Positions 763 to 32,000 are shown, counted from the first letter of the stretch. The stretch is DNA of 32,000 nt from Microcystis aeruginosa NIES-843 (GCF_000010625.1 NC_010296.1:5610001-5642000), one strand, 5' to 3'. Notes: a model not told the origin generated them from the sequence alone. Numbers and translations: made by a program.

Positions 763-1455
763 TTATAAAGTATCGGGATCAATTCCCAGATAACGGATAT
801 ATTCAGCTAAACGTTCAGCTTTAAGACGCTCTTGTTCTAATTGTAAACTTGCTTGTTCAGCTTTAAGACGCTCTTGTTCTAACCTTTGAGATAATTCGAT
901 AGAAGTCAAAAATTTCTGACCATCTAAACTATAAATTTCTAACTCATCTTCTCTCAATTCAAATCGGATATTTAACCGAGGACTAACCCATCCCTTAATC
1001 TCAGGTATAGAACTTAATAGTCCTTTCTGTCTCAACCATCCTTGAAAATTATGATAATCGGGATCATAGAGATAGTATTCTTCCACTCCATAACGTTGAT
1101 AAAAGAGGAGTTTTCGCTCCATTTCTTCTAAACTATTAGAAGGGGAGAGAATTTCAAAGACCACTTGAGGAGCGATGTTATCTTCTTGCCATTGTTTATA
1201 GGAACCCCTTCTTCCTTTCGGACGACCAAATACTACCATAACATCGGGAGCAACTGGTCCGGTAATTTTTTTATCTTGGACGGGATACCAGAGGAGATCT
1301 CCCGCAATAAAAACGTTAGGAGAATTAGCAAAGAGAATCTCAAGATTTTCTTTAATTTTCACGATCCATTCGTATTGTTCGGTATTATCGGCCATGGGTT
1401 TACCGTCACTATCGGGGTATTCAATATCTGGATCAATAGCTGGTGTAAAGGTCAT
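763..1455 (-). CDS. Uma2-family (DUF820) PD-(D/E)XK-fold putative endonuclease, tandem copy 1 (230 aa)
   Basis: ORF track. The core PDVMVVFG...VVFEILSPSN...E matches the Uma2/DUF820 pattern common in cyanobacteria. The C-terminal tail is a coiled coil, LEQERLKAEQASLQ. Confidence 0.8.
   Translation of the reverse strand: MTFTPAIDPDIEYPDSDGKPMADNTEQYEWIVKIKENLEILFANSPNVFIAGDLLWYPVQDKKITGPVAPDVMVVFGRPKGRRGSYKQWQEDNIAPQVVFEILSPSNSLEEMERKLLFYQRYGVEEYYLYDPDYHNFQGWLRQKGLLSSIPEIKGWVSPRLNIRFELREDELEIYSLDGQKFLTSIELSQRLEQERLKAEQASLQLEQERLKAERLAEYIRYLGIDPDTL
816..884. repeat. In-frame 42-bp repeat (about 1.6 units) in the 3' part of Uma2 copy 1
   Basis: CAGCTTTAAGACGCTCTTGTTCTAATTGTAAACTTGCTTGTT is followed by a partial second unit. 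Confidence 0.9.
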
Positions 1456-1476
1456 AATTTCTGCTCCTTTAAATAT

Positions 1477-2211
1477 TCATAAAGTCTCGGGATCAATTCC
1501 CAGAGAACGGATATATTCAGCTAAACGTTCAGCTTTAAGACGCTCCTGTTCTAATTGTAAACTTGCTTGTTCTAATTGTAAACTTGCTTGTTCAGCTTTA
1601 AGACGTTCTTGTTCCAATTGTAACCTTGCTTGTTCAGCTTTTTGGGATAACTCGATAGAACTTAAAAATTTCTGACCATCTAAACTATAAATTTCTAACT
1701 CATCTTCTCTCAATTCAAATCGGATATTTAACCGAGGACTAACCCATCCCTTAATCTCAGGTATAGAACTTAATAGTCCTTCCCGTCTCAACCATCCTTG
1801 AAAATTATGAGAATCCGGATCATAGAGATAGTATTCTTCCACTCCATAACGTTGATAAAAGAGTAGTTTTCGCTCCATTTCTTCTAAACTATTAGAAGGG
1901 GAGAGAATTTCAAAGACCACTTGAGGAGCGATGTTATCTTCTTGCCATTGTTTATAGGAACCCCTTCTTCCTTTCGGACGACCAAATACCACCATAACAT
2001 CGGGAGCAACCGGTCCAGTAATTTTCTTATCTTGGACGGGATACCAGAGCAAATCCCCCGCAATAAAAACGTTAGGAGAATCAGCAAAGAGAATCTCAAG
2101 GTTTTCTTTGATTTTCACGATCCATTCGTATTGTTCGGTATTATCGGCCATGGGTTTACCGTCACTATCGGGGTATTCAATATCCGGATCAATAGCTGGT
2201 GTAAAGGTCAT
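1477..2211 (-). CDS. Uma2-family (DUF820) putative endonuclease, tandem copy 2 (244 aa)
   Basis: Same protein as copy 1. I place the start at ATG 2209-2211 (MTFTPAID), which has AAGGAG 8 nt upstream, rather than the TTG start at 2229 in the track. Confidence 0.8.
   Translation of the reverse strand: MTFTPAIDPDIEYPDSDGKPMADNTEQYEWIVKIKENLEILFADSPNVFIAGDLLWYPVQDKKITGPVAPDVMVVFGRPKGRRGSYKQWQEDNIAPQVVFEILSPSNSLEEMERKLLFYQRYGVEEYYLYDPDSHNFQGWLRREGLLSSIPEIKGWVSPRLNIRFELREDELEIYSLDGQKFLSSIELSQKAEQARLQLEQERLKAEQASLQLEQASLQLEQERLKAERLAEYIRSLGIDPETL
1530..1640. repeat. In-frame 42-bp repeat with an extra 21-bp half unit in Uma2 copy 2
   Basis: Unit at 1530-1571, 21-bp half unit at 1572-1592, diverged unit at 1593-1634. 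Confidence 0.9.
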
Positions 2212-2232
2212 AATTTCTGCTCCTTTCAATAT

Positions 2233-2862
2233 TCATAAAGTCTCGGGATTAATTCCCAGAGAACGGATATATTCAGCTAAACGTTCAGCTTTTTGGGATA
2301 ACTCGATAGAACTTAAAAATTTCTGACCATCTAAACTATAAATTTCTAACTCATCTTCTCTCAATTCAAATCGGATATTTAACCGAGGACTAACCCATCC
2401 CTTAATCTCAGGTATAGAACTTAATAGTCCTTCCCGTCTCAACCATCCTTGAAAATTATGAGAATCCGGATCATAGAGATAGTATTCTTCCACTCCATAA
2501 CGTTGATAAAAGAGTAGTTTTCGCTCCATTTCTTCTAAACTATTAGAAGGGGAGAGAATTTCAAAGACCACTTGAGGAGCGATGTTATCTTCTTGCCATT
2601 GTTTATAGGAACCCCTTCTTCCTTTCGGACGACCAAATACTACCATAACATCGGGAGCAACCGGTCCGGTAATTTTCTTATCTTGGACGGGATACCAGAG
2701 CAAATCCCCCGCAATAAAAACGTTAGGAGAATTAGCAAAGAGAATCTCAAGGTTTTCTTTAATCTTCACGATCCATTCGTATTGTTCGGTATTATCGGCC
2801 ATGGGTTTACCGTCACTATCGGGGTATTCAATATCTGGATCAATAGCTGGTATAAAGGTCAT
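2233..2862 (-). CDS. Uma2-family (DUF820) putative endonuclease, tandem copy 3 (209 aa, no coiled-coil repeat)
   Basis: Same protein. Start moved to ATG 2860-2862 with an upstream AAGGAG. The C-terminal repeat is missing (SQKAERLAEYI). Confidence 0.8.
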   Translation of the reverse strand: MTFIPAIDPDIEYPDSDGKPMADNTEQYEWIVKIKENLEILFANSPNVFIAGDLLWYPVQDKKITGPVAPDVMVVFGRPKGRRGSYKQWQEDNIAPQVVFEILSPSNSLEEMERKLLFYQRYGVEEYYLYDPDSHNFQGWLRREGLLSSIPEIKGWVSPRLNIRFELREDELEIYSLDGQKFLSSIELSQKAERLAEYIRSLGINPETL

Positions 2863-2883
2863 AATTTCTGCTCCTTTCAATAT

Positions 2884-3660
2884 TCATAAAGTCTCGGGAT
2901 TAATTCCCAGAGAACGGATATATTCAGCTAAACGTTCAGCTTTAAGACGCTCCTGTTCTAATTGTAAACTTGCTTGTTCAGCTTTAAGACGCTCCTGTTC
3001 TAATTGTAAACTTGCTTGTTCAGCTTTAAGACGCTCCTGTTCTAATTGTAAACTTGCTTGTTCAGCTTTAAGACGCTCTTGTTCTAACCTTTCAGATAAC
3101 TCAATAGAAGTCAAAAATTTCTGACCATCTAAACTATAAATTTCTAACTCATCTCCTCTCAATTCAAATCGGATATTTAACCGGGGACTAACCCATCCCT
3201 TAATCTCAGGTATAGAACTTAATAGTCCTTCCTGTCTCAACCATCCTTGAAAATTATGAGAATCCGGATCATAGAGATAGTATTCTTCCACTCCATAACG
3301 TTGATAAAAGAGGAGTTTTCGCTCCATTTCTTCTAAACTATTAGAAGGGGAGAGAATTTCAAAGACCACTTGAGGAGCGATGTTATCTTCTTGCCATTGT
3401 TTATAGGAACCCCTTCTTCCTTTCGGACGACCAAATACTACCATAACATCGGGAGCAACTGGTCCGGTAATTTTTTTATCTTGGACGGGATACCAGAGGA
3501 GATCTCCCGCAATAAAAACGTTAGGAGAATTAGCAAAGAGAATCTCAAGATTTTCTTTAATTTTCACGATCCATTCGTATTGTTCGGTATTATCGGCCAT
3601 GGGTTTACCGTCACTATCGGGGTATTCAATATCCGGATCAATAGCTGGTGTAAAGGTCAT
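2884..3660 (-). CDS. Uma2-family (DUF820) putative endonuclease, tandem copy 4 (258 aa, longest coiled coil)
   Basis: ORF track. Same core, with three and a half 14-aa LEQERLKAEQASLQ units. Confidence 0.8.
   Translation of the reverse strand: MTFTPAIDPDIEYPDSDGKPMADNTEQYEWIVKIKENLEILFANSPNVFIAGDLLWYPVQDKKITGPVAPDVMVVFGRPKGRRGSYKQWQEDNIAPQVVFEILSPSNSLEEMERKLLFYQRYGVEEYYLYDPDSHNFQGWLRQEGLLSSIPEIKGWVSPRLNIRFELRGDELEIYSLDGQKFLTSIELSERLEQERLKAEQASLQLEQERLKAEQASLQLEQERLKAEQASLQLEQERLKAERLAEYIRSLGINPETL
2937..3088. repeat. In-frame 42-bp repeat, 3 full units plus a partial unit, in Uma2 copy 4
   Basis: Units at 2937-2978, 2979-3020 and 3021-3062 are identical. A partial fourth unit follows. Confidence 0.95.
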
Positions 3661-6065: not shown

Positions 6066-6219
6066 GGAGGCAGGGGGCAGGGGGCAGGAGTCCGTTTTTG
6101 TAACGGGGATTTATGCCCCGCTCCAAAAACTTTTCGCCTTAAGGCGAGGTTTTAGACCTGATTTTGTCGATAATATTACTCAAAACTCAGTGGTTAGTGG
6201 TCACTAGCCCCTTCTAACC

Positions 6220-6247
6220 GATAACTGATAACTGATAACTGATAACT
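6220..6247. repeat. (GATAACT)x4 heptamer array, the inverse complement of the CAGTTAT family
   Basis: Read directly. Confidence 0.9.
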
Positions 6248-6521
6248 GGTTAAGGCCTAGCATAAAAACTGAAAAAAACTCGAAAGTTAATAATAATTTA
6301 AAGAATTTGACGCCGGAGAATAATCAGATTTTGGCTGATAGCTAAACCCTGACGGCTGGCAAAATAACAGAAATTCTTAAGAAGCTAAAGGGTTTAAATC
6401 CCCAGAGAGAGCATTGTAGAATGAAGCGGTTAGTTATCTACTAGAAGATAGGACTTTTCCGTCCCAGCGAAACAATTCTATTCAAATCTTTAACCCAAAT
6501 TGCCAAGGAGACTGAGTTTTA

Positions 6522-7265
6522 ATGTCTGTTAATTTTCTGGGAGTTGGTTTGTTTCACCCTCTCCTTACCCCTTATCTCGCCCTCCATATTCCTGACGGCT
6601 TTTTGAGTCCACCGGTGAGTCTATTTACTTGGATAATTGCCGTCGTCCTGATTGGCTTTTCTCTCAAAAAAGTGCGCGGTCACTACGCTGAACGGGCTGT
6701 ACCTTTGATGGGAGTTTGTGCCGCCTTTATTTTTGCCGCCCAGATGATTAATTTTCCCATTCCGGGGGGAACCTCCGGACATTTATTAGGGGGGACTCTT
6801 GCGGGGGTTTTACTCGGTCCCTGGGCGGGTTCTTTGGTGATGGCGGTGGTTTTTATCGTTCAAGCTTTATTTTTTCAAGATGGCGGTTTAACGGTTTTAG
6901 GGGCGAATATCGTCAATATGGGTTTGATCGGGACGTTTGGCGGTTATTATCTCTATCTAGGGATTAGGAAAGCCCTCGGTTTTTCCAGTTGGCGCGGTAT
7001 GGCGATCGCTGTTGCCCTGGCCGCTTGGACAAGTGTGGTGGTGGCAGCGTTGGTTTGCGCGCTGCAATTGGCTTTATCGGGGACTGTACCGCCTTTAGTC
7101 GCCCTTTTTGCCATGTTATCTTGGCATATCCTCATCGGCATCGGGGAAGCGGTGATTACCGTTTTCGCTGTCGGTTATATCTGGCGAACCCGTCCCGATC
7201 TTCTCTACGATCCGCCCCATTCCGTTAATACTTCTGTTCCCCCTGCCTACGCTTCTCGTCAATAG
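6522..7265 (+). CDS. cbiM: ECF transporter substrate-capture component CbiM/NikM (247 aa)
   Basis: HIPDGFLSPP motif and a multi-TM protein. It is followed by PDGLE, CbiQ and CbiO genes. Confidence 0.8.
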   Translation: MSVNFLGVGLFHPLLTPYLALHIPDGFLSPPVSLFTWIIAVVLIGFSLKKVRGHYAERAVPLMGVCAAFIFAAQMINFPIPGGTSGHLLGGTLAGVLLGPWAGSLVMAVVFIVQALFFQDGGLTVLGANIVNMGLIGTFGGYYLYLGIRKALGFSSWRGMAIAVALAAWTSVVVAALVCALQLALSGTVPPLVALFAMLSWHILIGIGEAVITVFAVGYIWRTRPDLLYDPPHSVNTSVPPAYASRQ

Positions 7266-7881: not shown

Positions 7882-7892
7882 CCCCTTTCTAA

Positions 7893-7916
7893 CTGATAAC
7901 TGATAACTGATAACTG
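7893..7916. repeat. (CTGATAA)x3 heptamer array abutting the cbiQ start
   Basis: Read directly. Confidence 0.9.
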
Positions 7917-7921
7917 AATAA

Positions 7922-8695
7922 ATGCTACATATTGCTACTTTTTCTTGCGAAAATGAGTGCCAAAATTTCGGTTTTTGGCAGAGACTCGCGCCCCATACCC
8001 GGGTTTTAGTTACTCTTTTGTTAGTTTTTGCCACAGCCTTAACGCCGAATGGTAGCTGGGAAACTTGGGGGATTTACGGATTAGGATTAATTATTTTAAT
8101 TCTGATCAGTCGGGTGGCTATTCCCGTACTTTTACAAAGAGTAGCGATCGAATTTGTCTTTATCGGTGTGGTTTTATTGGGAACTCTTTTTCGTGATGGC
8201 GGCGAAATTCTTTGGTCTTGGGGATTTTTGCGGATAACTAGCGAGGGATTGCTAGTTTTAGGCAGTGTCGCCCTAAAAGCTTTTCTCTGTCTTTGTACGG
8301 TCAATATTCTGGTTTTAACGACAGCAATTCCCGACCTGTTGCAAGCATTAGTTACCCTGAAAACTCCCCCTTTATTGGTGGCAATTTTGGCTTCTATGTA
8401 CCGTTATCTAGCTGTTTTGATCGCTGAATTTAATTCCATGCGAAGGGCAGCAATTGCGCGCAATTTAATGAGTAGTCCCCGATGGCAACGGCTGCTAGTG
8501 GGACACATGATCGGCGCTTTATTTATCCGTACCTACGAACGTGGCGATCGCATTTATCAAGCCATGTTATCGAGGGGTTACACCGGTTCCTTGCCCTCTG
8601 TACAGGTTCCCCAAAGCAAGCTGAAAGATTATCTCGCTATAATTTGCATAGTAATTCTGATCCTCTGGGGTCAAATGGTACATCTACTCAGGTAA
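7922..8695 (+). CDS. cbiQ: ECF transporter transmembrane (T) component CbiQ (257 aa)
   Basis: Multi-TM protein with the ...RRAAIARN... and YERGDRIYQAMLSRGY region typical of CbiQ/EcfT. Operon context supports the call. Confidence 0.75.
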   Translation: MLHIATFSCENECQNFGFWQRLAPHTRVLVTLLLVFATALTPNGSWETWGIYGLGLIILILISRVAIPVLLQRVAIEFVFIGVVLLGTLFRDGGEILWSWGFLRITSEGLLVLGSVALKAFLCLCTVNILVLTTAIPDLLQALVTLKTPPLLVAILASMYRYLAVLIAEFNSMRRAAIARNLMSSPRWQRLLVGHMIGALFIRTYERGDRIYQAMLSRGYTGSLPSVQVPQSKLKDYLAIICIVILILWGQMVHLLR

Positions 8696-8709: not shown

Positions 8710-9516
8710 ATGCACCACAACCCGATTTTTATTGAAAACCTAGTTTATACCTATCCTGACGGCACAGAAGCGTTAAAAGGTATTAATTTAGCCATTGAAG
8801 CTACGGAAAAGGTAGCTTTGGTCGGGGCAAATGGATCGGGAAAATCCACCTTATTACTGCATTTTAACGGTATTCTCCCGCCGCAAACGGGTAAAATCAC
8901 CGTCGGTCCCTACCAAGTTAAACCGGAGAATTTAGAAAATATCCGCAATTTTGTCGGTTTAGTCTTCCAAAACCCCGACGATCAGCTATTTATGCCCACT
9001 GTCTGGGAAGATGTGACTTTTGGACCGATGAATCAGGGAATTCGGGGAGAGGATTTAAAACATCGCTGTCATCATGCTTTACACGCGGTGGGATTGGATT
9101 CCCAGCATTACGGTAAGAGAAACAGTCAGAATCTATCGGGGGGTGAAAAAAAACGCGTGGCGATTGCGGGGGTTTTAGCCATGTTGCCCCAGGTCTTAGT
9201 TTTTGATGAACCTAGCGCCCAACTGGATCCCCGATCCCGTCGGCAATTAATACAACTATTGGCCACTTTACCCCAAACTCAAGTGATCGCCACCCACGAT
9301 CTCGATCTGGCTTTAGAACTATGCGATCGCACGGTGGTGTTAAGTCGTGGTCAGGTGGTGGGAGAGGGAGAAACCGCTAAGATTTTAAGTAATCGGGAAT
9401 TTTTGGAAGAACACGACCTCGAAACACCCCTTTGTTATAGTCGTCCCTACTGTGCGATCGCTGATGCGCCCTCACAAGTCAGTGATCAGTTATCAGTTAT
9501 CAGTGATCAGATGTGA
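8710..9516 (+). CDS. cbiO: ECF transporter ATPase CbiO (268 aa)
   Basis: Walker A GANGSGKST, signature LSGGEKKRV, Walker B VLVFDEPSAQLD and an H-loop ATHD. The start is set at ATG 8710, 15 nt after the cbiQ stop. The 8482 start in the track would overlap cbiQ by more than 200 nt. Confidence 0.85.
   Translation: MHHNPIFIENLVYTYPDGTEALKGINLAIEATEKVALVGANGSGKSTLLLHFNGILPPQTGKITVGPYQVKPENLENIRNFVGLVFQNPDDQLFMPTVWEDVTFGPMNQGIRGEDLKHRCHHALHAVGLDSQHYGKRNSQNLSGGEKKRVAIAGVLAMLPQVLVFDEPSAQLDPRSRRQLIQLLATLPQTQVIATHDLDLALELCDRTVVLSRGQVVGEGETAKILSNREFLEEHDLETPLCYSRPYCAIADAPSQVSDQLSVISDQM
9480..9510. repeat. CAGTGAT/CAGTTAT heptamer array inside the 3' end of cbiO
   Basis: CAGTGATCAGTTATCAGTTATCAGTGATCAG encodes the C-terminal tail SDQLSVISDQ. 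Confidence 0.9.
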
Positions 9517-9627
9517 GTTTTCAGTTCACCGATTACTCTTTACTGGACGGCTACGCCGTGCCTTTGGCAACACTGAAAAAAAGCTCCCTTTTCCCCTCTC
9601 ATAGACAGTCTTAACGAGTGATTTAGA

Positions 9628-11662: not shown

Positions 11663-11702
11663 CTGATAACTGATAACTGATAACTGATAACTGATAACTG
11701 AT
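11663..11702. repeat. (CTGATAA)x5.7 heptamer array abutting the stop codon of the GH57 gene
   Basis: Read directly. Confidence 0.9.
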
Positions 11703-14363: not shown

Positions 14364-14405
14364 TTACTGATTACTGATTACTGATTACTGATTACTGATT
14401 ACTGA
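14364..14405. repeat. (TTACTGA)x6 heptamer array
   Basis: Read directly. Confidence 0.9.
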
Positions 14406-16731: not shown

Positions 16732-16816
16732 AGACCACTTCGTGCGCGTTGCGGGGGGAGATGGGGAGAATAAATCAAAGCAATCTCCTATCTCCTGAAT
16801 ACTGACTCGGAGAATA

Positions 16817-16858
16817 CTGATAACTGATAACTGATAACTGATAACTGATAACTGATAA
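16817..16858. repeat. (CTGATAA)x6 heptamer array, ending 11 nt before the rnpB 3' end
   Basis: Read directly. Confidence 0.9.
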
Positions 16859-16869
16859 AGGAGAGAGTC

Positions 16870-17366
16870 AGACATAAGCCGAATTCTGTATTTCCCAACA
16901 GCAGTAAAATCGCTTTTACCTTTGTTGGAATAGAGGTTATCTATCTGGGATAATTGTCACCAATTACCTCAAGCGGTTCCTAAGAACGGGACAGGAAAAA
17001 GACCAACCTTTGTCCCTCCACCTTGCTCCCCACCGGGGTTTACCGAGCCAGTACCTCTCGATACTGCTGGTGCGCTCTTACCGCACCTTTGCACCCTTAC
17101 CCCCAATCAGTTATCAGTTATCAGTTATCAGTTATCAGTGGAAAGTTATCAGTGGAAAGTTATCAGTTATCAGTGAATTTACTTTCGTTACTGTTTACTG
17201 ATCACTGTTTACTAATCACTGAAAAAAGGGGCGGTATTTTTCTGTGGCACTATCCTCACGCTCGCGCGCACTGGACGTTATCCAGCAAGTGTGGTCTTTC
17301 GGGAGTTCGGACTTTCCTCGCAATCATTGATCAAATGATTCCGCAACCTCTAGACCAACTCTCTCC
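16870..17366 (-). ncRNA. rnpB: RNase P RNA (bacterial type A), about 497 nt
   Basis: The reverse strand reads GGAGAGAGUUGGUCUAGAGGUUGCGGAAUC...GCGAGGAAAGUCCGAACUCCCGAAAGACC...GUGCCACAGAAAAAUACCGCC...GGUAAGAGCGCACCAGCAG...GGUAAACCCCGG...ACAGAAUUCGGCUUAUGUCUGACUCUCUCC. It contains the universal P4 strands GAGGAAAGUCCG and ACAGAAnnCGGCUUA. The 5' GGAGAGAGU pairs with the 3' ACUCUCUCC to form P1. Confidence 0.9.
17108..17221. repeat. Heptamer-repeat block (CAGTTAT family and TTACTGA-like units) inside rnpB
   Basis: Read directly. On the RNA strand it sits immediately 3' of the conserved ACAGAAAAAUACCGCC, which is the P12 position. Confidence 0.85.
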
Positions 17367-17516: not shown

Positions 17517-17542
17517 CTGATAACTGATAACTGATAACTGAT
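17517..17542. repeat. (CTGATAA)x3.7 array abutting the hydrolase start codon
   Basis: Read directly. Confidence 0.9.
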
Positions 17543-21556: not shown

Positions 21557-21676
21557 AACCCTATCTACAAAAATAGTACCCAACTTATCGAAAATTTGGG
21601 TTAAAACCCCGTCGTTTTACGACGGCTTTTCCTGATTTTTAATGTAGCACTTAAGAACTTCCAGTGGCGCACCTCT

Positions 21677-21730
21677 CAGTTATCAGTTATCAGTTATCAG
21701 TTATCAGTGGGTAAGTTATCAGTTATCAGA
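21677..21730. repeat. (CAGTTAT)n heptamer array with one interruption
   Basis: Read directly. It ends CAGTTATCAGATGTGAGTTTT, the same junction seen at 9501-9520. Confidence 0.9.
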
Positions 21731-23411: not shown

Positions 23412-25112
23412 TTAGGGCTGCCCGGCCAGTTCCGACTCTAATTTGGCCAGAATCTGGGGTTTAAGTTGCTCGAGTTTCTGTTTTAACATCCGCTTGCTAA
23501 TTTGCGGGCTGCCCACTGAGGCTAATTGACTATCTCTCACCCATTGCTGCAAAATTTGGCATTGATTGGCGGGAATATTAGCGGTGATCACATTTTCACA
23601 GATAGGGCCGCCTTCGAGGGGGAAAAATAAAATCCAGTATTGACCGGTTTCGGCGAGGGTTTTGGTCATTTTTTGACCTTGGGGGGTTTTTAAGTCCAAA
23701 TAACAGGGCAACCAGCGGGGTCCCCATTGACGATGATAGAGGACAGTAATCCAGAGAATCATCGGGTGAGGTGTGGGTAAAAAGAGGAATTGATTATAAC
23801 GGACACTAGCAACCCGGACGGCGATATCCTCTCGAGCCAACATTACCCATAAACTGGCAAAAACGCCGTCAGCAGCCCGGAGACAGCGTGAGAAGACAAT
23901 TTTTTGGCGCGGTTTATCCTCGGGCCAACTGGACTTGAGACAGATATCCCTCGCATTAGCAGCAGAAACAATGGTTTGATTTAAATCATCAAGGGTTTTG
24001 ATTTTGCTGGTGTAATCGTCGGTTTTTTTGACTATTTCATTTTTGACTAGGGGTTCAAGTCGTTCGAGACGTTGTAGTATATCTGTAACACTTGAAGGGC
24101 GATCGCTGGGTGCTTTGGCCAAGCAGCGCAGGATTAACTGTTCTAATTCTGGCGGTAATTGCAAGCTAGAATTAAAGGAACGGGGTTCGGCGTAGTGGTG
24201 AACCTCATACCAACTGCCAAAGGAGGGATTATTGGGAAAAACGGGCGTTTCTCCCGTGAGCATCTCGTACATCATAATCCCAAAACTGTAGATATCGGAA
24301 CGATGATCGAGTTCTTTACCTTCCATCTGTTCTGGGGAACAATAGGCTAAGGTTCCCATAAACGATTGGGTTTGGGATTCTCCTGATTGGATGAGTTTAG
24401 CGATGCCAAAATCGAGAATTTTCACCAATTCCCCTAATCCTGAGTCCTGAATCACCATAATATTGCTTGGTTTGATGTCCCGGTGAATAATCGGACACAT
24501 CTCCCCTTGCAAGATAATACCGTTATGGGCGCATTCCAGGCCGAAACAAATCTGACGGGTGAGATTGAGAAAGCGCGGGAGGGGCAGCGGCTGATGTTTG
24601 ATGATTTCACTCACGCTCTCCCCCGGCAAAAATTCCATGACGTAGAAGGGGACTTCCTTGTCATCTACACCATAATCACGAACTTTAACAATATGAAGAC
24701 TTTTTTCGCCTAAAAGTGCCGAAATAGTCGCCTCTCGCTCGAAGCGCTCACGCATTCTTTGGCTGAGGAGAGTTTGCGAGAGTAATTTCACGGCGACGGT
24801 TACGCCACCTAATAGTTTATCTTCTGCTCGATATACTTGTCCCATGGCGCCGCTACCGATCAACTCGACCAGTTGGTATCGATTGGCAAGTAAGCTCCGA
24901 TGTCTAGATTCTGCCGACATAGCTAGGCTACTGTGTGAATTATAGTGAGTCTGGTGGAGAGAGTTTTGGTTCTTCGTTACTTGGTCTGGTTCGAGCAGGG
25001 GGCATAAATCGACTAAATCCTTATCTGGCAAGAGACTTAATTGATTAGCTCGTTCTAGATCGAAAACAATTGGCAAAAATCGCAGCCATGTCTTTCTATA
25101 TAAGGGTTTCAT
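23412..25112 (-). CDS. Ser/Thr protein kinase (Hanks type) with an unassigned C-terminal domain of ~200 aa. The start is uncertain: 25112, or ATG at 24920.
   Basis: GSGAMGQVY glycine loop, VAVK, HRDIKPSNIMV, DFGIAK and GTLAYCSPEQ. The first 64 codons belong to the duplicated segment also found at 14127-14312. Confidence 0.85.
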   Translation of the reverse strand: MKPLYRKTWLRFLPIVFDLERANQLSLLPDKDLVDLCPLLEPDQVTKNQNSLHQTHYNSHSSLAMSAESRHRSLLANRYQLVELIGSGAMGQVYRAEDKLLGGVTVAVKLLSQTLLSQRMRERFEREATISALLGEKSLHIVKVRDYGVDDKEVPFYVMEFLPGESVSEIIKHQPLPLPRFLNLTRQICFGLECAHNGIILQGEMCPIIHRDIKPSNIMVIQDSGLGELVKILDFGIAKLIQSGESQTQSFMGTLAYCSPEQMEGKELDHRSDIYSFGIMMYEMLTGETPVFPNNPSFGSWYEVHHYAEPRSFNSSLQLPPELEQLILRCLAKAPSDRPSSVTDILQRLERLEPLVKNEIVKKTDDYTSKIKTLDDLNQTIVSAANARDICLKSSWPEDKPRQKIVFSRCLRAADGVFASLWVMLAREDIAVRVASVRYNQFLFLPTPHPMILWITVLYHRQWGPRWLPCYLDLKTPQGQKMTKTLAETGQYWILFFPLEGGPICENVITANIPANQCQILQQWVRDSQLASVGSPQISKRMLKQKLEQLKPQILAKLESELAGQP

Positions 25113-25187: not shown

Positions 25188-25343
25188 TATATAGCAATTC
25201 CCATAGTTGTGAGGTACAGAGTCTTAGGTTTTGAGGAGTCAGGATTCAGGATTCAGGATTCAGGATTCAGGAGTCAGGAGTCAGGATTCGGGATTCAGGA
25301 GTTAAGATTTTGGTGTACCTCATGAGATTGGGAAACGCTATAT
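25188..25343. repeat. Palindromic element: imperfect inverted arms of ~30 bp flanking an 11-unit (AGGATTC/AGGAGTC) heptamer array
   Basis: Heptamer array at 25234-25310. TGAGGTACA (25210-25218) pairs with TGTACCTCA (25314-25322). The outer arms, TATATAGCAATTCCCATAG versus ATTGGGAAACGCTATAT, are partly complementary. Confidence 0.75.
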
Positions 25344-26644: not shown

Positions 26645-27835
26645 TTGTTAACTGAGATAATTCTCGGTGCATTCTGCCTGGGGCTACTGCTGTCTCAGGC
26701 TGTTGCCTTTTTTATCCTTCTTTCCCGTCTGCTAAAAGGGGCGCGTCGTCGTCCTCCCCTGACTCCCCAACCCCCCACCCCGGAGATGTTAGGGACAGTA
26801 AGCGTGATTGTGCCGACGTTAAACGAAGTGGCCAGGATTGACGGTTGTTTACAGGGATTGAGTCAACAGAGTTACGAAGTGCGAGAAATTCTGATTGTCG
26901 ATAGCAATTCCCAAGATGGTACGCGGGAAAAAGTCAAAGAGATAGCGGCAAAAGACCCCCGCTTTCGCTTGAAAACCGATTATCCTTTGCCCCCCGATTG
27001 GGTAGGTCGTCCCTGGGCGTTACACAATGGTTTTTTGTTTAGTTCTCCTAAAAGTGACTGGATTTTGGGCATTGATGCCGATACCCAACCCCAAGCAAAT
27101 TTAGTGGCTAGTTTAGTTAAAGCTGCGATCGCAGAAGGTTACGATTTAGTTTCCCTGTCGCCGCAATTTATCCTCTCCTATCCGGGAGAATGGTGGTTAC
27201 AGCCAGCTTTATTGATGACTTTGCTCTATCGCTTTGATGCGGCCGGAGTGCGCGAGCAAGATCCCGAAAGAGTGATGGCCAATGGTCAATGTTTTCTCTG
27301 CCGGCGGTCAGTTTTAGCGGCTTTAGACGGTTATAGCGGGGCAAAAGGTTCTTTTTGCGATGATGTCACCCTGGCCCGTCTAGCGGCAACGAAAGGCTAT
27401 CGGGTGGGATTTCTCGATGGGGCGAAGTTGATTCGCGTGCGGATGTACGAAGGACTTAAGGAAACTTGGCGCGAATGGGGCAGATCTCTTGACCTCAAAG
27501 ATGCCTCCTATCAGGGGCAATTATGGGGCGATTTAGCTTTATTAGCTCTTACTCAGGGATTACCGATAATTATCACTCCTTTACTGCTCACAGCTTTGAT
27601 TTTTGGCTACAATTTCCTGAGTTTAAAAATTGTCTTGACTTTAAACCTGCTGCTGTTATTGATTCGTTTTGCCCTTTTATTGGCTGTCTCTCCTAGCTAC
27701 TATCGGGGCGAAAAAGTCAATCTATCTTCAGGATTATTTTGGCTATCTCCCCTAGCAGATCCGCTGGCAGTTATCCGCATTTTTGTCTCTGCTTTTACCC
27801 GTCCCCAAAGTTGGCGCGGTCGAGTGTATCAGTAA
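26645..27835 (+). CDS. cruG: Family-2 glycosyltransferase, CruG-like (myxol 2'-O-glycosyltransferase candidate; 396 aa)
   Basis: VSVIVPTLNE, a GIDADT DxD motif, an N-terminal TM helix and C-terminal TM helices. The TTG start is 1 nt after the cruF stop. Confidence 0.55.
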   Translation: MLTEIILGAFCLGLLLSQAVAFFILLSRLLKGARRRPPLTPQPPTPEMLGTVSVIVPTLNEVARIDGCLQGLSQQSYEVREILIVDSNSQDGTREKVKEIAAKDPRFRLKTDYPLPPDWVGRPWALHNGFLFSSPKSDWILGIDADTQPQANLVASLVKAAIAEGYDLVSLSPQFILSYPGEWWLQPALLMTLLYRFDAAGVREQDPERVMANGQCFLCRRSVLAALDGYSGAKGSFCDDVTLARLAATKGYRVGFLDGAKLIRVRMYEGLKETWREWGRSLDLKDASYQGQLWGDLALLALTQGLPIIITPLLLTALIFGYNFLSLKIVLTLNLLLLLIRFALLLAVSPSYYRGEKVNLSSGLFWLSPLADPLAVIRIFVSAFTRPQSWRGRVYQ

Positions 27836-27952
27836 TATTTTTTGATATCCGTAAAGAGGTTGATGTACCTTGTAGTCACAATTAAGACGGTCAATGAGGC
27901 GAACTCATCAGACCACTATTTACTCCTTCTACATAATAATTGAGGCTCAACT

Positions 27953-28345
27953 ATGGACCCTATTTCTCTGATTCTTGCTGCTTTAGGGGCTGGTGCGCTC
28001 GCTGGCGCTAAGGATACCGCAGGAACAGCTGTTAAAGATGCCTATCAGGGTTTGAAGACTTTAATTAAGAAGAAGTTTGAAGGCGATGTTCTGGGACAAG
28101 CGATGGTAGATGCCAAACCAGAAGAAATCAAGCAAGCTGAAGGTTTGTTAAAAGATAAAATTACCAAAGCTGGTGCTGATCAAGATCAGGAAATCATTAA
28201 AGTGGCTCAGGATTTACTCGATCAAGTCAAAGAACAGCCCGGTGGACAGGAGATAATCAATCAAACTCAAACTAATACGGTGAGCGGCGTAACTGTTGGT
28301 GGAAACTTTGAATTTAAGCCAGTTCAAGAAGGCAAGAAGAGTTAA
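27953..28345 (+). CDS. Small hypothetical protein (130 aa) with a Gly/Ala-rich hydrophobic N-terminal helix and a charged helical body
   Basis: ORF track, with GAGG 8 nt upstream of the ATG. MDPISLILAALGAGALAGAKDTAG is followed by K/E/D/Q-rich sequence. I recognise no enzymatic motif. Confidence 0.65.
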   Translation: MDPISLILAALGAGALAGAKDTAGTAVKDAYQGLKTLIKKKFEGDVLGQAMVDAKPEEIKQAEGLLKDKITKAGADQDQEIIKVAQDLLDQVKEQPGGQEIINQTQTNTVSGVTVGGNFEFKPVQEGKKS

Positions 28346-28484
28346 GAAAGCGTGAATTTGAATAAGGGTTCGGTAAAATTTGACCACTTAAACAAAGATT
28401 AGAAGGAGTGCTGGATTTAGCTGAACCGACAGCCATTTGTTGCATCTCTGGTCCCTAAAACAAAACATCGGAGATGCCACTACT

Positions 28485-30824
28485 ATGAGCCAGTCAATTC
28501 CAGACCGTCAATCTCAGGAACAAGATAACCTGATTAAAGATACTAACGTTAGCGGTGATTTAATCTTCGCTCCCGTTCAAATTGGTACTAAAATTGAGAC
28601 TCAAATTGTCCAGATTTCAGTTGCTAAAGTTACGCAGCAACCATTGATTAAGGATTCACCTTATCAAGGACTGAAAAGATTTAATGTCAAAGACAGAGAT
28701 CGCTTTTTCGGTAGAGATAAGTTAATTGCCAGATTATTTGAGGCGGTGAATCGGAGCAACTTGAGTTTAGTGTTAGGGGCTTCTGGAAGCGGCAAGTCCT
28801 CTGTGGTGCGTGCGGGGTTAATTCCTGAGTTGGAAAAATCTCTGGAGTCTCAAACATTTTATGACTTCATCTTTACACCCAATCAAGATCCCTTTGAGTC
28901 CCTATATCGGTGTTTACTCAGTGAGGAGAAGAATTATAACTTCAGTAAATCAGACGCTAAGATTGCCCTAGAAGCAAAGGCAAATACGTTAAAAGAAGTG
29001 ATTCGCACCTTAAGGAACGATGGGGAACGGTGGCTAATTTTTGTCGATCAATTTGAGGAATTGTTCACTATTTGTGACGATCCAGATAAACGCAAAAATT
29101 TTATTTCAGGTCTGGTTGAAGTTGCTAAGTTTGGTGATAGTTCTGTCAAGATTGTACTGGCAATGCGGGCTGACTTTCTGGAGCAATTGAGTTTCTATCC
29201 CGATTTAGGTGCTATTGCCAATCAAAATAATATTCATCTGGTCACTGAAATGTTTCCAGATGAACTGCGACAGGCGATTGAGCAACCAGCAGCCAAGCAT
29301 GGGGTCGTGTTTGAAGAAGGGTTAGTTGAACAAATTATCAAGGAACTTGATGGACAAAAAGGTTATCTTCCCTTATTGCAATATACCCTGAATTTGCTTT
29401 GGAAAAGTGAATGCCAAACTCGCGGTGCTGATGGTCGCTTTGAGATCGAAGACCGTATCTTAAACAAGAAAAGTTATGCAGCGTTAGAGGGGGTAAGGGG
29501 AGCATTGCAAAAGCGGGTCAACGAGATATACAGCAATTTGAACCAAGACGAACAGACAACCACTAAGCAAATATTTTTGAAGCTAGTTAATTTTGTTGAT
29601 ACTGATTCAGGCAGTAGAGCAGTGAGCAGACGAGCTTATCGAAATGAATTTGTCGGTAAATCAGTAGAAAAGCTCCTCGAAAAGTTCATTAATAAAGAAA
29701 AGTTGCTAGTTAGTAGTAGCGAGTATTCTAGTACGGAAGAAATGCAAGCGAGTGACAGCAAGCGTCTGAAACAACTTCCAACCGTAGAAATTGCCCATGA
29801 AATTTTGCTCTCATCTTGGGATGAGTTAAAAGACTGGCTTGAAGAGGAAAAGGATGCAATTATCTTCAAAAATTGGTTGGCTGATGAGACAATACGGTGG
29901 CAAAAAATTCGTTTAGAGGATGAGTCTAAAGCTCAGGATGAACTCTTGAAGGGCTATCAATTGGCTAAGGCTGTAGAGTTGAGAAAGAACGATGCTTTTA
30001 AAAATCTTGATGGCTTAAGACCAGAAGAAAGTGAATTCATTGATGCCAGTGTCAATTGGCAACAGCAACAAGAGCAGCAAAAGAAAAACCGACGACGAAA
30101 TACCATTGTAAGCCTCGCTACTTTTTCAGTCATTTCTTTGGGGCTGGCCAGCTTTGCAGGAATTCAACTATTGAATGTTAAGAAGGCTAAACAAAGTACA
30201 CAAGAAGGACTTATTCGCTCTGCTTGGATAAGTCTTAAGCCATCAAAATGTGATGAAAAAGAATCTATCCGTGGATTTCGCTATCTCTACTGTATTATCA
30301 AAGAATTTGATGTTTATCGTCAATTAATTTTGAGTTCTGACTTACTTATTTTTAAAGAGGGTGGTCCCCATGATCGTAAAGCTTTGAATCTTGACAGTGC
30401 TGACAAGTTTGGTTATTACAACCCAGAATTTTTAGAATGGATTCAAAAGAAAGCCATTAACCCTAATGACGGCAAATTTAAGGAGCCAATCCAACTAGCT
30501 TACAATGATAAAATTAAAGTAGTAGCAAGATCTCTCTACCAAACACATAAAATTTTGTTCCCAACTCCTGAAGGATCTGATGAGTTTAAAGCAATCAAGA
30601 AGAAATATCAAGATCACCTTATAAAACAGGATCTTCCAAAGTATTATTTCGAGTACAAGTTCTGGGAACTCGTACAGAAGGAGGATACCCCTAAACACAT
30701 AACAGTGTCATCAGCAGGTTTTTGGGTTCGGCGCTCTATTGATGGAACAGAAAAACAGTTTTTTGATATCTTGACACAACTTCTGGAAATCTATGATTCA
30801 GAGTGGCTGAGTGAACACGAGTGA
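28485..30824 (+). CDS. STAND-like P-loop NTPase with one TM helix and an unassigned C-terminal domain (779 aa from ATG 28485; 795 aa if from TTG 28437)
   Basis: SPYQGLKRFNVKDRDRFFGRD, Walker A GASGSGKSS (from nt 28776), Walker B LIFVDQFEELF (from nt 29034), MRADF, LPLLQYTLNLLW and EIAHEILLSSWDELKDWLEEE. A TM helix TIVSLATFSVISLGLASFAGIQLL lies at nt 30102-30173. GGAGA sits ~10 nt upstream of ATG 28485. Confidence 0.8.
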   Translation: MSQSIPDRQSQEQDNLIKDTNVSGDLIFAPVQIGTKIETQIVQISVAKVTQQPLIKDSPYQGLKRFNVKDRDRFFGRDKLIARLFEAVNRSNLSLVLGASGSGKSSVVRAGLIPELEKSLESQTFYDFIFTPNQDPFESLYRCLLSEEKNYNFSKSDAKIALEAKANTLKEVIRTLRNDGERWLIFVDQFEELFTICDDPDKRKNFISGLVEVAKFGDSSVKIVLAMRADFLEQLSFYPDLGAIANQNNIHLVTEMFPDELRQAIEQPAAKHGVVFEEGLVEQIIKELDGQKGYLPLLQYTLNLLWKSECQTRGADGRFEIEDRILNKKSYAALEGVRGALQKRVNEIYSNLNQDEQTTTKQIFLKLVNFVDTDSGSRAVSRRAYRNEFVGKSVEKLLEKFINKEKLLVSSSEYSSTEEMQASDSKRLKQLPTVEIAHEILLSSWDELKDWLEEEKDAIIFKNWLADETIRWQKIRLEDESKAQDELLKGYQLAKAVELRKNDAFKNLDGLRPEESEFIDASVNWQQQQEQQKKNRRRNTIVSLATFSVISLGLASFAGIQLLNVKKAKQSTQEGLIRSAWISLKPSKCDEKESIRGFRYLYCIIKEFDVYRQLILSSDLLIFKEGGPHDRKALNLDSADKFGYYNPEFLEWIQKKAINPNDGKFKEPIQLAYNDKIKVVARSLYQTHKILFPTPEGSDEFKAIKKKYQDHLIKQDLPKYYFEYKFWELVQKEDTPKHITVSSAGFWVRRSIDGTEKQFFDILTQLLEIYDSEWLSEHE

Positions 30825-30827
30825 ACA

Positions 30828-31009
30828 GGGAGCATCTCACTTACGCGATAAGTAATTATACTTAGCCTAAAAGCCACTCTTAATCGTGTCTTGGAACGAA
30901 ATAGAGGCTTTTAAAGACTGCGTACATGGAGAATTAAAACAAGAATTACCCTCGAAAAGCCTATTTTTCCACTAAGTATTTATGCTCATTGCAAAGGTGA
31001 GATGCTCCC
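30828..31009. mobile_element. 182-bp MITE-like insertion with perfect 13-bp terminal inverted repeats and a 9-bp target-site duplication
   Basis: Left TIR GGGAGCATCTCAC (30828-30840) and right TIR GTGAGATGCTCCC (30997-31009). Flanking direct repeats GAGTGAACA lie at 30819-30827 and 31010-31018. Confidence 0.8.
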
Positions 31010-31046
31010 GAGTGAACAAAAGTTGCTGGATACCAATCCATCTCAA

Positions 31047-32000
31047 TTAAAACCGAGGAATATGATTAAAAAGATGACGCATGACGACAAACTCCCAACA
31101 AAATAACGAATAGCCATAACCCTGCTGCTCCACCGTCCTCACCTGAGCTTGTAAACCCTTTAAGGAAAAATCAGGATTCCAACCCGCATATAAACCCACC
31201 CCCACCGGCACATACCGGGAAGCTGTCGCCAGTCCCGATCCCGAAAGACTTGCCGCCACCTGATTGGGAGTTTTCCGATAGATCTGTAAGACCACCTCAT
31301 CCACAATCCCTTGACGCACCCAAGCCAACCAATTTTGATTATATTTATTCACCGCAAAAGAGTGAGGATTAGGCGAAAGACTCACCACCAACTTGGGATT
31401 AATCGCCTTGACATGATCGTGCAACTTGCGGGTTAAATTCGTTAAAGCCTGACTTTTATTACCAAAAACACGCGGAACTGCCCAATGATCATCTAACTGA
31501 ATCCCCGCCAAATCTTTTTCTTTTAAAATATCTTCCATATTCCCCAAAAGATAGGCTTGTACCTGCGGATTCGCCGGATCTAACCAGACATTGGTTTCCA
31601 CCACCGTCTTCCCTGCGGGCGTTTTTAATAGCCAATCCGGATGCTTTTTGGCAATAGGATCCTTAGGGGATAACATCAAACCATACTCAAACCAAGCAAA
31701 TGGTTTCAAACCCTGCCGTAAAGACTCCTTAACCGCTGCCCTCCAGGGATTGCTCAACGGCGGCACAAACAACCAATTCGTCGGACGTTGGGAAGTCGGA
31801 TAAAGCGTTCCCCTAAACCCATAAACACTAAAATACACCCGGTCATAACCCGATCGCGAAAGATGATTTAACACCTCATCTAAGGACGTAGTGTGATGTA
31901 ACAATATCGTGCCAATATTGGTTAACCAAACCCCCTTCATCTGCTCATTTTCCACTGCCTTTCGGGGAGCCGCTCGGTGAGTAACCAACAACAAAAAAGC
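31047..32000 (-). CDS. GHL10/DUF187-like glycoside hydrolase (family-10-like); the 5' end probably lies outside the window
   Basis: KGVWLTN...YDRVYFSVYG...TLYPTS...KPFAWFEYGLM...HPDWL...VWLDPANPQVQAYL...GIQLDDHW resembles DUF187/GHL10 proteins. The reading frame stays open to the window edge. Confidence 0.6.
   Translation of the reverse strand, partial: AFLLLVTHRAAPRKAVENEQMKGVWLTNIGTILLHHTTSLDEVLNHLSRSGYDRVYFSVYGFRGTLYPTSQRPTNWLFVPPLSNPWRAAVKESLRQGLKPFAWFEYGLMLSPKDPIAKKHPDWLLKTPAGKTVVETNVWLDPANPQVQAYLLGNMEDILKEKDLAGIQLDDHWAVPRVFGNKSQALTNLTRKLHDHVKAINPKLVVSLSPNPHSFAVNKYNQNWLAWVRQGIVDEVVLQIYRKTPNQVAASLSGSGLATASRYVPVGVGLYAGWNPDFSLKGLQAQVRTVEQQGYGYSLFCWEFVVMRHLFNHIPRF

Follow-up and report, generated by a model that had tools for sequence, protein, structure and literature searches.

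A probable Bell/BASS-type amyloid-signaling gene pair with a predicted membrane-spanning nSTAND1 receptor in Microcystis aeruginosa NIES-843

We analyzed a 32,000-nucleotide (nt) stretch of the Microcystis aeruginosa NIES-843 genome (GCF_000010625.1, NC_010296.1:5610001-5642000; hereafter, the window), in which two adjacent genes probably constitute an amyloid-signaling cell death module of the Bell/BASS type under the control of an NLR-like receptor. Gene 1 encodes a small helical protein, and gene 2 encodes a STAND nucleoside triphosphatase (NTPase) followed by a transmembrane (TM) helix and an unnamed C-terminal domain (C-domain) (Table 1). Both open reading frames (ORFs), their spacing, and all of the motifs quoted for them were located as described in a first-pass annotation, which had been made from the sequence alone and had proposed a possibly undescribed conflict or defense system. 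The full ORF of gene 2 spans positions 28437..30824; translation from the ATG at 28485, which lies 139 nt past the gene 1 stop codon, yields 779 amino acids (aa), and a start at the equivalent position was also chosen by gene callers in eight other Microcystis contigs. The two genes are collinear and closely spaced, as are published Bell/BASS-NLR pairs, and a terminator scan of positions 27700-31200 returned no site, so that none lies in the spacer between them.

Table 1. Coordinates of the gene pair and its features, counted from the first nucleotide of the window
Feature	Position	Strand	Description
Gene 1	27953..28345	+	ORF call; 130-aa small helical protein of the Bell/HetE-N type, predicted membrane-permeabilizing executioner
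N-terminal hydrophobic helix of gene 1	27959..28009	+	aa 3-19, PISLILAALGAGALAGA, rich in small residues and preceded by Asp2; predicted to insert into the membrane
Effector-side BASS-like motif (gene 1 tail)	28259..28339	+	aa 103-129, NQTQTNTVSGVTVGGNFEFKPVQEGKK
Spacer between gene 1 and gene 2	28346..28484	+	139 nt; GGAG 11 nt upstream of the gene 2 ATG
Gene 2	28485..30824	+	779-aa putative NLR-like receptor: BASS motif, nSTAND1 NTPase, one TM helix, unnamed C-terminal domain
Receptor-side BASS-like motif (gene 2 head)	28512..28592	+	aa 10-36, SQEQDNLIKDTNVSGDLIFAPVQIGTK
Beta-branched extension after the motif, receptor side only	28593..28631	+	IETQIVQISVAKV, read directly from the sequence
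nSTAND1 NTPase module	28659..29906	+	aa 59-474 of gene 2; Pfam PF20703
Walker A	28776-28802	+	Within gene 2; includes Lys104
Walker B	29034-29066	+	Within gene 2
Single predicted TM helix	30105..30173	+	aa 541-563 of gene 2, preceded by KKNRRRNT; predicted N-in/C-out
Unnamed all-alpha C-terminal domain	30198..30821	+	aa 572-779 of gene 2; sensor position, probably extracytoplasmic

The tail of gene 1 is repeated at the head of gene 2. Residues 103-129 of the gene 1 product pair without gaps with residues 10-36 of the gene 2 product at a local alignment score of 52, a value that was reached in 0/5000 and 1/5000 shuffles (mean, 24.4; standard deviation, 4.8), and the rest of gene 2 scores no higher than 31 against the same tail. 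BLASTP between the two whole proteins reported nothing significant, the motif being visible only by local alignment of the termini. The pair thus displays an effector-terminal motif of ~25 aa that recurs at the N terminus of the adjacent receptor, with a composition rich in N, Q, G, V, and T. In previously described systems, Bell proteins ending in a BASS motif adjoin an NLR that starts with the same motif, and BASS motifs form prions and fibrils, with the receptor side templating the effector side (Dyrka et al. 2020, bioRxiv 10.1101/2020.01.06.895854). The agreement between the gene 1 tail and the gene 2 head is therefore the signature of NLR-associated amyloid signaling. This motif had been missed by the first-pass annotation, and it places the pair in the described Bell/BASS-NLR class; the term "undescribed" was consequently an overstatement, and the locus is less novel than had been held because the overall type of system is known.

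The shared motif resembles published BASS2 pairs (VTNTVSGDVSGSVVQARD; VHNEITGGVFFAPVIQGQ), and another motif class among the related loci matches BASS3. Six motif strings (i.e., FAPVQ, FKPVQ, YAATS, EVKGAQVGD, GVAGT, and GDISGG) drawn from five nSTAND1-linked classes are absent from Table S2 of Dyrka et al. The resemblance of the motif classes of these nSTAND1-linked pairs to BASS2 and BASS3 is accordingly stated at the family level only. A beta-branched or aromatic stretch follows the motif in receptors only (IETQIVQISVAKV in the window; ITITNYYY, IIYNYFYY, NITYISQ, and NQYIITQ in other classes), with no counterpart in the effector tails; this stretch may supply the receptor oligomer with an additional strand required for nucleation.

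The pairing is conserved beyond Microcystis. We surveyed 80 loci with gene 1 homologs, using one genome per species (mostly Nostocales, Microcystis, and other cyanobacteria, with one Amycolatopsis), and found an ORF similar to the gene 2 NTPase directly after the gene 1 homolog, on the same strand, in 59 of them, generally with a gap of 0-25 nt. The neighborhood check called for by the first-pass annotation is thereby answered in favor of syntenic families. An alignment of 33 gene 1 homologs (alignment A1) comprises a conserved N-terminal domain of ~105 aa followed by a C-terminal stretch of ~25 aa that falls into discrete, cassette-like classes. When the last 40 aa of each small protein were aligned with receptor N termini, the mean score was 65 for its own neighbor versus 34 for other loci. 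Tails and heads that were clustered separately gave partitions in close agreement (adjusted Rand index [ARI], 0.91-0.94; maximum of 2000 permutations, 0.26), with cognate tail/head pairs such as NVKYAATSGSGNASISGI and SEYAATSATGNATITITNYYY, FQGEVKGAQVGDRNTQ and FQNEVKGAVVGEGNIIYNY, and GDVFGVAGTNSGTVNIG and GDLLGVAGHNSGTVNITYI. Five loci share the motif class of the window (i.e., the window itself, Microcoleus [L004], and three Nostocales). Synteny together with these matching tail and head classes indicates that the pairing is real and co-evolving.

Several loci depart from the simple two-gene layout. A 1291-aa ORF of Nostoc sp. CMAA1605 (L046, 7980-11852) matches both gene 1 and the nSTAND1 module and is an apparent all-in-one fusion, and another locus (L015) has two Bell-like genes (6328-6756 and 7959-8396) upstream of a single nSTAND1 gene. 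In alignment A1, P0051 and P0060 share the middle variant "GEPKAEMVLEEHATDPETYEAPLKKK" with P0112 and P0117, yet their tail motifs differ; this uncoupling of Bell-body variants from tail classes suggests that the amyloid motif has been exchanged as a cassette by recombination.

The gene 1 product is 100% identical to a protein annotated at NCBI as "MULTISPECIES hypothetical protein [Microcystis]". Precomputed matches to PF20701 (HetE-N) are present in all 119 of the full-length or nearly full-length gene 1 homologs listed, the only listed homolog without one being a short fragment, and in a local Pfam search this family was matched by 13 of the 33 aligned homologs (best E = 7e-10). An AlphaFold2 (AF2) model of gene 1 is a helical bundle (predicted local distance difference test [pLDDT], 79) with a helix at aa 3-19 and a disordered tail comprising the last 22 residues (aa 109-130; pLDDT, <50), in keeping with the small helical protein with an N-terminal hydrophobic helix that had been described before. 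The hallmarks of Bell proteins are thus present, namely, a length of ~130 aa (within ~120-140 aa), a start of M-D-P with an acidic residue (Asp2), a hydrophobic first helix, a helical bundle, and a disordered tail; the published signature of Bell/HeLo proteins combines an acidic position 2 or 3 with a hydrophobic helix at the N terminus (Dyrka et al. 2020, bioRxiv 10.1101/2020.01.06.895854). An EACC-type identity for gene 1, a family that the first-pass annotation had listed among the profiles to be searched, was rejected, given that no EACC1 Pfam match was obtained at E <= 1 and that the family matches HetE-N/Bell instead. HetE-N has been described by Kaur et al. in the context of TPR-GreA/B-C-PIN proteins, which is the architecture of Escherichia coli Agp, whose partner Bab is a Bell relative.

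A further link to BASS systems comes from the Amycolatopsis locus (L070), in which a direct gene 1 homolog begins with MDPVSMIVAALVGG...AVKDAYQGLKALL and ends in a BASS3-type motif, KYNTTIGDNAQGVIVGDKAKQKNYF. This tail is mirrored as KYDVTIERAQGIAIGDNARVHNVF directly upstream of the P-loop in an overlapping gene of the P-loop NTPase type. The BASS3 class is RHIM-like and was initially identified in Pseudonocardiaceae (Dyrka et al. 2020, bioRxiv 10.1101/2020.01.06.895854). Judged by sequence, then, gene 1 is a member of the Bell/HetE-N family.

Gene 2 had previously been recognized as a STAND NTPase, and the profile searches place it in the nSTAND1 clade. Residues 59-474 match PF20703 at E = 7.3e-108 (362 bits against a cutoff of 27.1; profile positions 1-373 of 379), and the series of motifs is intact, including SPYQGLKRF (aa 58-66), Walker A GASGSGKSS (aa 98-106), Walker B LIFVDQFEELF (aa 184-194), MRADF (aa 227-231), LPLLQYTLNLLW (aa 295-306), and EIAHEILLSSWDELKDWLEEE (aa 435-455). 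With a score well above the gathering threshold and both Walker motifs preserved, gene 2 is a member of nSTAND1. Its match to NACHT in Pfam reached only E = 0.15, and a screen based on NACHT or NB-ARC would therefore miss it. NCBIfam returned no informative match for the gene pair, Pfam assigned nothing to aa 475-779, and the matches of gene 2 in PADLOC are weak and at the level of the P-loop only (mad3, E = 2.7e-4; mad8; AbiLi), so that it does not belong to the antiphage defense systems catalogued there.

A hydrophobic helix at aa 541-563 of gene 2 (Kyte-Doolittle mean of 1.85 over 19 aa) is followed by 216 residues. Such a helix occurs at the same place in 49 partner proteins, ~400-420 residues past Walker A. 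The TM anchor, which the first-pass annotation had treated as distinctive, is thus the rule in this nSTAND1 subfamily and was rejected as the feature that sets the locus apart. The number of K/R residues in the 15 positions before and after the helix is 5 versus 3 in gene 2 and averages 5.5 versus 1.9 in the 49 receptors, with the excess lying before the helix in 47 of them. Such a K/R bias is related to membrane topology by the positive-inside rule, which therefore predicts that the NTPase is cytoplasmic and that the C-terminal part is external. The C-terminal part of the related receptors is usually composed of WD40 repeats, as the first-pass annotation had stated for relatives; pentapeptide repeats and unassigned domains are also seen. 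The Microcoleus ortholog is 72% identical to gene 2 over aa 1-540, with similarity ending at the helix and WD40 repeats following it, which indicates that the sensor position is exchanged as a module at the membrane boundary. Nearly all of the Bell-linked nSTAND1 proteins (L001-L080) have one hydrophobic helix, strongly biased in the positive-inside sense, that precedes their WD40 or pentapeptide domains. This arrangement implies periplasmic propellers, a prediction that is unexpected and general in that it concerns a large class of cyanobacterial "WD40 repeat proteins".

The region after the helix had been described as unassignable, and searches of Pfam, NCBIfam, PDB profiles, and Foldseek left it so. 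No Pfam or NCBIfam family covers the C-domain (aa 572-779), and its family profile retrieved nothing meaningful from PDB sequences. An AF2 model built on 20 homologs (alignment A2) is all-alpha with ten helices (pLDDT, 83.5; predicted template modeling score, 0.82), for which Foldseek found no analog in PDB or BFVD (best E > 1; template modeling [TM] scores, <0.25). The family itself is large: at E <= 1e-3 it yields 1037 cluster representatives (clusters at 50% identity), and at E <= 1e-10 it yields 676. It is marked by the conserved motifs GPH, FG[HY]YNPEFL, and GFWVRRSIDGT. Among the long members that were scanned, 15 of 16 are nSTAND1 proteins with the C-domain at the C terminus, and their N termini carry a caspase (4 proteins), a TIR (3 proteins), a CHAT (1 protein), or no recognized domain (7 proteins). 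The C-domain is accordingly a dedicated sensor-position module of nSTAND1 receptors.

Several features of the family point to a location outside the cytoplasm. A hydrophobic signal-like start is present in 53 of 75 short C-domain proteins (~250 aa), some of which have a lipobox; in most long members, a hydrophobic segment separates the NTPase from the C-domain; and by a crude hydrophobicity measure, ~78% of all members have such a segment somewhere upstream. The C-domain is thus most likely extracytoplasmic. A conserved Cys pair was considered as a topology marker and was not used, as its presence does not follow a predicted secreted or TM context. In P0126, a metagenomic protein of 352 aa, a charged, coiled-coil-like linker connects the end of an nSTAND1 module to a C-domain; the protein has no TM helix, and GFWVRRSIDGT is missing from its end. 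The gene is probably truncated or decayed, but the protein could be a cytoplasmic variant of the domain, and we treated it as uninformative, yet as a caveat for the topology. One long member, P0251 (1639 aa), carries a peptidoglycan amidase domain (N-acetylmuramoyl-L-alanine amidase). Stand-alone C-domain homologs (L089, L093, and L090-L092) adjoin genes for glycoside hydrolases (GH10 and GH3) or beta-helix proteins, the hydrolases being present in two of three neighborhoods. These three neighborhoods have no conserved partner, and no function was therefore derived from them; the hydrolase neighbors and the amidase domain give a faint hint of a link to carbohydrates or the cell wall.

To compare strains, eight Microcystis contigs with an identical gene 1 were retrieved by exact-sequence lookup, six of which were aligned with the window; of the other two, one (L085) equals the window across gene 2 and one (L088) breaks off inside this gene. 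In each contig, the pair occupies one chromosomal site, between a carotenoid synthesis/GT2 gene pair and a convergent GHL10 gene, and the flanks match the window at 97-100% identity. Among strains, gene 2 is a mosaic, being 82-95% identical in the NTPase parts and 50-76% identical in the C-domain, with insertions and deletions. A single F/I change is all that affects the nearly invariant receptor-side motif, whereas the remainder of the protein varies. Extreme divergence that is confined to a receptor within near-identical flanks is typical of conflict genes. What sets this locus apart is a C-terminal domain that is unnamed, strongly polymorphic, and probably extracytoplasmic. The 3' boundary also varies. 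In several strains (L081-L083 and L087), gene 2 is ~27 codons longer (tail NLLDTNPSQLKPRNMIKKMTHD...), with an overlap of ~60 nt between it and the GHL10 gene at the 3' end of the latter; in the window, it stops earlier, leaving a 222-nt gap (30825-31046) to the GHL10 gene, whose longest ORF among those listed is 315 aa versus the 334 aa called in other strains.

From these comparisons we infer, for this locus, amyloid formation, pore formation, topology, trigger, and a role in defense; a conflict or cell death role, as had been suggested before, is still the best reading of the pair. Gene 2 would be the receptor, with a cytoplasmic nSTAND1 NTPase, an amyloid-prone N-terminal motif of ~27 residues, a TM helix, and a sensor that most likely faces the periplasm. 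Gene 1 would be the executioner: a helical bundle of the Bell/HetE-N type, with its N-terminal hydrophobic helix kept inactive and the same motif at its end. Recognition of a cue by the variable C-terminal domain would lead to NTP-dependent oligomerization of the NTPase, whereupon the clustered N-terminal motifs would take a cross-beta fold and template the tail of gene 1. The N-terminal helix of gene 1 would then be released into the membrane, which it would permeabilize, killing the cell. The outcome would be abortive infection or altruistic death at the level of the colony.

We further propose, more tentatively and at somewhat less than even odds, that the Bell-coupled nSTAND1 proteins, including gene 2, are single-pass transmembrane NLR-like receptors whose sensors (i.e., WD40 propellers, pentapeptide repeats, or the alpha domain) are outside the cytoplasm. 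Such receptors might detect a cue at the envelope, such as phage adsorption or injection, wall damage, or contact with non-kin in a colony, and trigger an amyloid-templated pore former; the alpha domain might be a new ligand-binding module kept polymorphic by an arms race.

A number of results weigh against the assignment to an amyloid-controlled death module. The gene 1 protein itself scores 16.9 bits against PF20701, below the cutoff of 25; Foldseek found no PDB fold match to its AF2 model with E < 1 (TM scores, <0.3); and the gene 1 family profile found no meaningful match among PDB sequences at E <= 10, including none to Bab (9H9V). The best matches of this profile and of the C-domain family profile among PDB sequences are coiled-coil or compositional. 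Large topological variation among Bell folds has been noted by the authors of the Bab study (Ibarlosa et al. 2024, bioRxiv 10.1101/2024.11.07.622273). On the receptor side, gene 2 lacks the combination of NB-ARC or NACHT with TPR or WD repeats by which published receptors were defined, and the 139-nt spacer exceeds the <=10 nt usual for published Bell/BASS pairs. PADLOC-DB v2 contains no match to gene 1 and no model for the pair, whose neighbors are of the housekeeping type (carotenoid synthesis, GT2, and GHL10) rather than those of a defense island. The 100% identity of gene 1 in the compared strains is a result of the retrieval method. The ratio of nonsynonymous to synonymous substitution rates (dN/dS) is ~0.7 in the NTPase and the C-domain alike, i.e., relaxed or diversifying and not demonstrably positive; because it is not >1, we do not claim positive selection on the C-domain alleles.

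Among other explanations, the one that survives best would have the shared motif act as an ordinary homotypic adaptor by beta-strand pairing (the "EAD principle"), with no amyloid, and would have gene 1 reside in the membrane to regulate the NTPase or share in its sensing, rather than kill by forming pores. The first helix of gene 1 is indeed rich in Gly and Ala, the receptor is itself membrane anchored and could be regulated by a membrane partner, and small constant TM proteins with a glycine-rich helix have been considered possible membrane sensors upstream of variable partners (Kaur et al. 2020, on EACC1). We nevertheless regard this explanation as unlikely: gene 1 matches HetE-N/Bell and not EACC1 in Pfam; the composition, monomer disorder, and placement of the motif are those of prion- and fibril-forming BASS motifs; and Bab, the closest experimental analog, kills via its N-terminal helix.

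Less likely still is a transmembrane signaling system for a physiological cue (e.g., envelope state, colony formation, or polysaccharide turnover), in which the NTPase would be the switch and the small protein the output, without death or defense. The housekeeping-type neighbors, the synteny of the locus in Microcystis, the missing PADLOC match, the glycoside hydrolases beside two of three stand-alone C-domain genes, and the amidase domain of one long C-domain member would all fit such a role. However, the C-domain also stands behind nSTAND1 modules with caspase, TIR, or CHAT, all of which are domains of death or immunity; the extreme allelic divergence is restricted to the receptor, with near-identical flanks; and Bell-family proteins are death effectors wherever tested (Ibarlosa et al. 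2024, bioRxiv 10.1101/2024.11.07.622273). That the two genes are unrelated neighbors with a motif similarity arising by chance, as the silent whole-protein BLASTP comparison might suggest, is refuted by the shuffles (0-1/5000), the synteny (59/80 loci), and the ARI of 0.91-0.94, and is highly improbable.

Other features of the window and its surroundings were recorded alongside the gene pair. A Ser/Thr protein kinase gene lies upstream (window 23412-25112, minus strand), with called lengths of 502, 512, 514, and 566 aa across the Microcystis strains (L081-L088), and past it, some strains have toxin-antitoxin genes (ParE-like or YoeB/PhdYeFM) or a Cas12f1-like TNB fragment. The window contains many intergenic tandem heptamer arrays of the TAACTGA/CTGATAA/ACTGATA family, together with GGGGTGT and AGGATTC, at positions including 6215-6248, 7890-7917, 9479-9526, 11663-11702, 14364-14405, 16816-16858, 17106-17174, 17517-17542, 21676-21729, and 25234-25309, among others; we take these arrays to resemble cyanobacterial short tandemly repeated repetitive (STRR) sequences. 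On the minus strand at 763-3660, four successive ORFs of 215-258 aa contain related 21/42-bp tandem repeats (the 42-bp unit at 2934-3087 is 99% matched), which suggests a paralogous family of repeat or coiled-coil proteins.

To our knowledge, the bacterial STAND/NLR immune receptors characterized so far sense phage proteins inside the cell. If the transmembrane reading of the Bell-coupled nSTAND1 proteins is true, a large membrane-spanning subfamily with a variable sensor on the outside would join the logic of surface receptors with that of NLRs in one polypeptide wired to an amyloid switch. Amyloid signaling would also be extended to a clade of NTPases that NACHT- or NB-ARC-based screens would miss. 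An unnamed family of roughly a thousand clusters at 50% identity is defined by the C-domain and is found repeatedly in nSTAND1 proteins with a caspase, TIR, or CHAT. Cyanophages shape the toxic blooms of Microcystis, and a hypervariable suicide receptor at a fixed chromosomal site would be a testable candidate determinant of strain-level phage resistance or kin discrimination. Both the transmembrane receptor reading and the new domain family remain worth testing.

Among known systems, the EACC1 two-gene system has a 5' gene with an EACC1 domain and a 3' gene that usually starts with a caspase or cyclase (Kaur et al. 2020), and the pair lacks all three, with no EACC1 in gene 1 and no caspase or cyclase in gene 2. 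Closer in part are the nSTAND1 conflict systems of multicellular bacteria (Kaur et al. 2021, PMC8195603) and the nSTAND1 sensors diversified by diversity-generating retroelements (PMC10907252), which share the NTPase clade, the effector-NTPase-variable sensor layout, and a predicted counter-invader role. These systems differ from the pair in having EAD/bDLD adaptors or fused enzymatic effectors and FGE/CLec or WD40 sensors, and in the passages of these sources that we searched, no amyloid-motif link to Bell proteins and no counterpart of the gene 2 C-domain were found. A periplasmic placement had already been predicted for some STAND-linked sensor domains. Our literature searches, of incomplete coverage such that a prior description is possible, found nothing that links Bell/BASS to TM-containing nSTAND1 receptors or describes the C-domain.

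The HET-S/NWD2 pair of Podospora anserina follows the same logic, in that oligomerization of an NLR templates an amyloid motif on a helical pore former encoded next door. Unlike the Microcystis pair, it has a eukaryotic cytosolic NACHT-WD40 receptor, an HRAM motif, and a HeLo fold, and the likeness drawn here is one of logic. The two-gene antiphage system Bab/Agp of E. coli causes abortive infection by amyloid signaling and membrane damage (Ibarlosa et al. 2024, bioRxiv 10.1101/2024.11.07.622273). Its large sensor activates a small executioner related to Bell proteins; an amyloid motif is located at the C terminus of the executioner and is repeated at the N terminus of the sensor. Bab/Agp is the sole bacterial case that has been validated by experiment, and we use it as the mechanistic model for the gene pair. 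The BASS11 motif of Bab/Agp is unrelated in sequence, and the pair has neither a Bab-homologous Babybell effector nor a TPR-GreA/B-C-PIN sensor, its partner being an nSTAND1 NTPase; it is thus not a Bab/Agp member, which does not weaken a Bab/Agp-like working of the two genes.

The nearest relatives are the Bell/BASS-NLR pairs (Dyrka et al. 2020; a version in J Mol Biol also exists), which likewise occur in colonial or filamentous cyanobacteria, including Microcystis. They share with the pair a helical protein of ~130 aa with a hydrophobic N-terminal helix and an acidic position 2, and an N/Q/G/V-rich, BASS2-like effector tail of ~25-27 aa repeated at the head of an adjacent, collinear STAND NTPase. 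Unlike in the published pairs, the receptor NTPase here is of the nSTAND1 clade, the spacer is 139 nt, and a TM helix with a non-repeat, unnamed C-domain takes the place of cytoplasmic TPR or WD repeats. We therefore place the gene pair with the Bell/BASS-NLR pairs in a broad sense, with gene 2 as a STAND NTPase in the wider sense.

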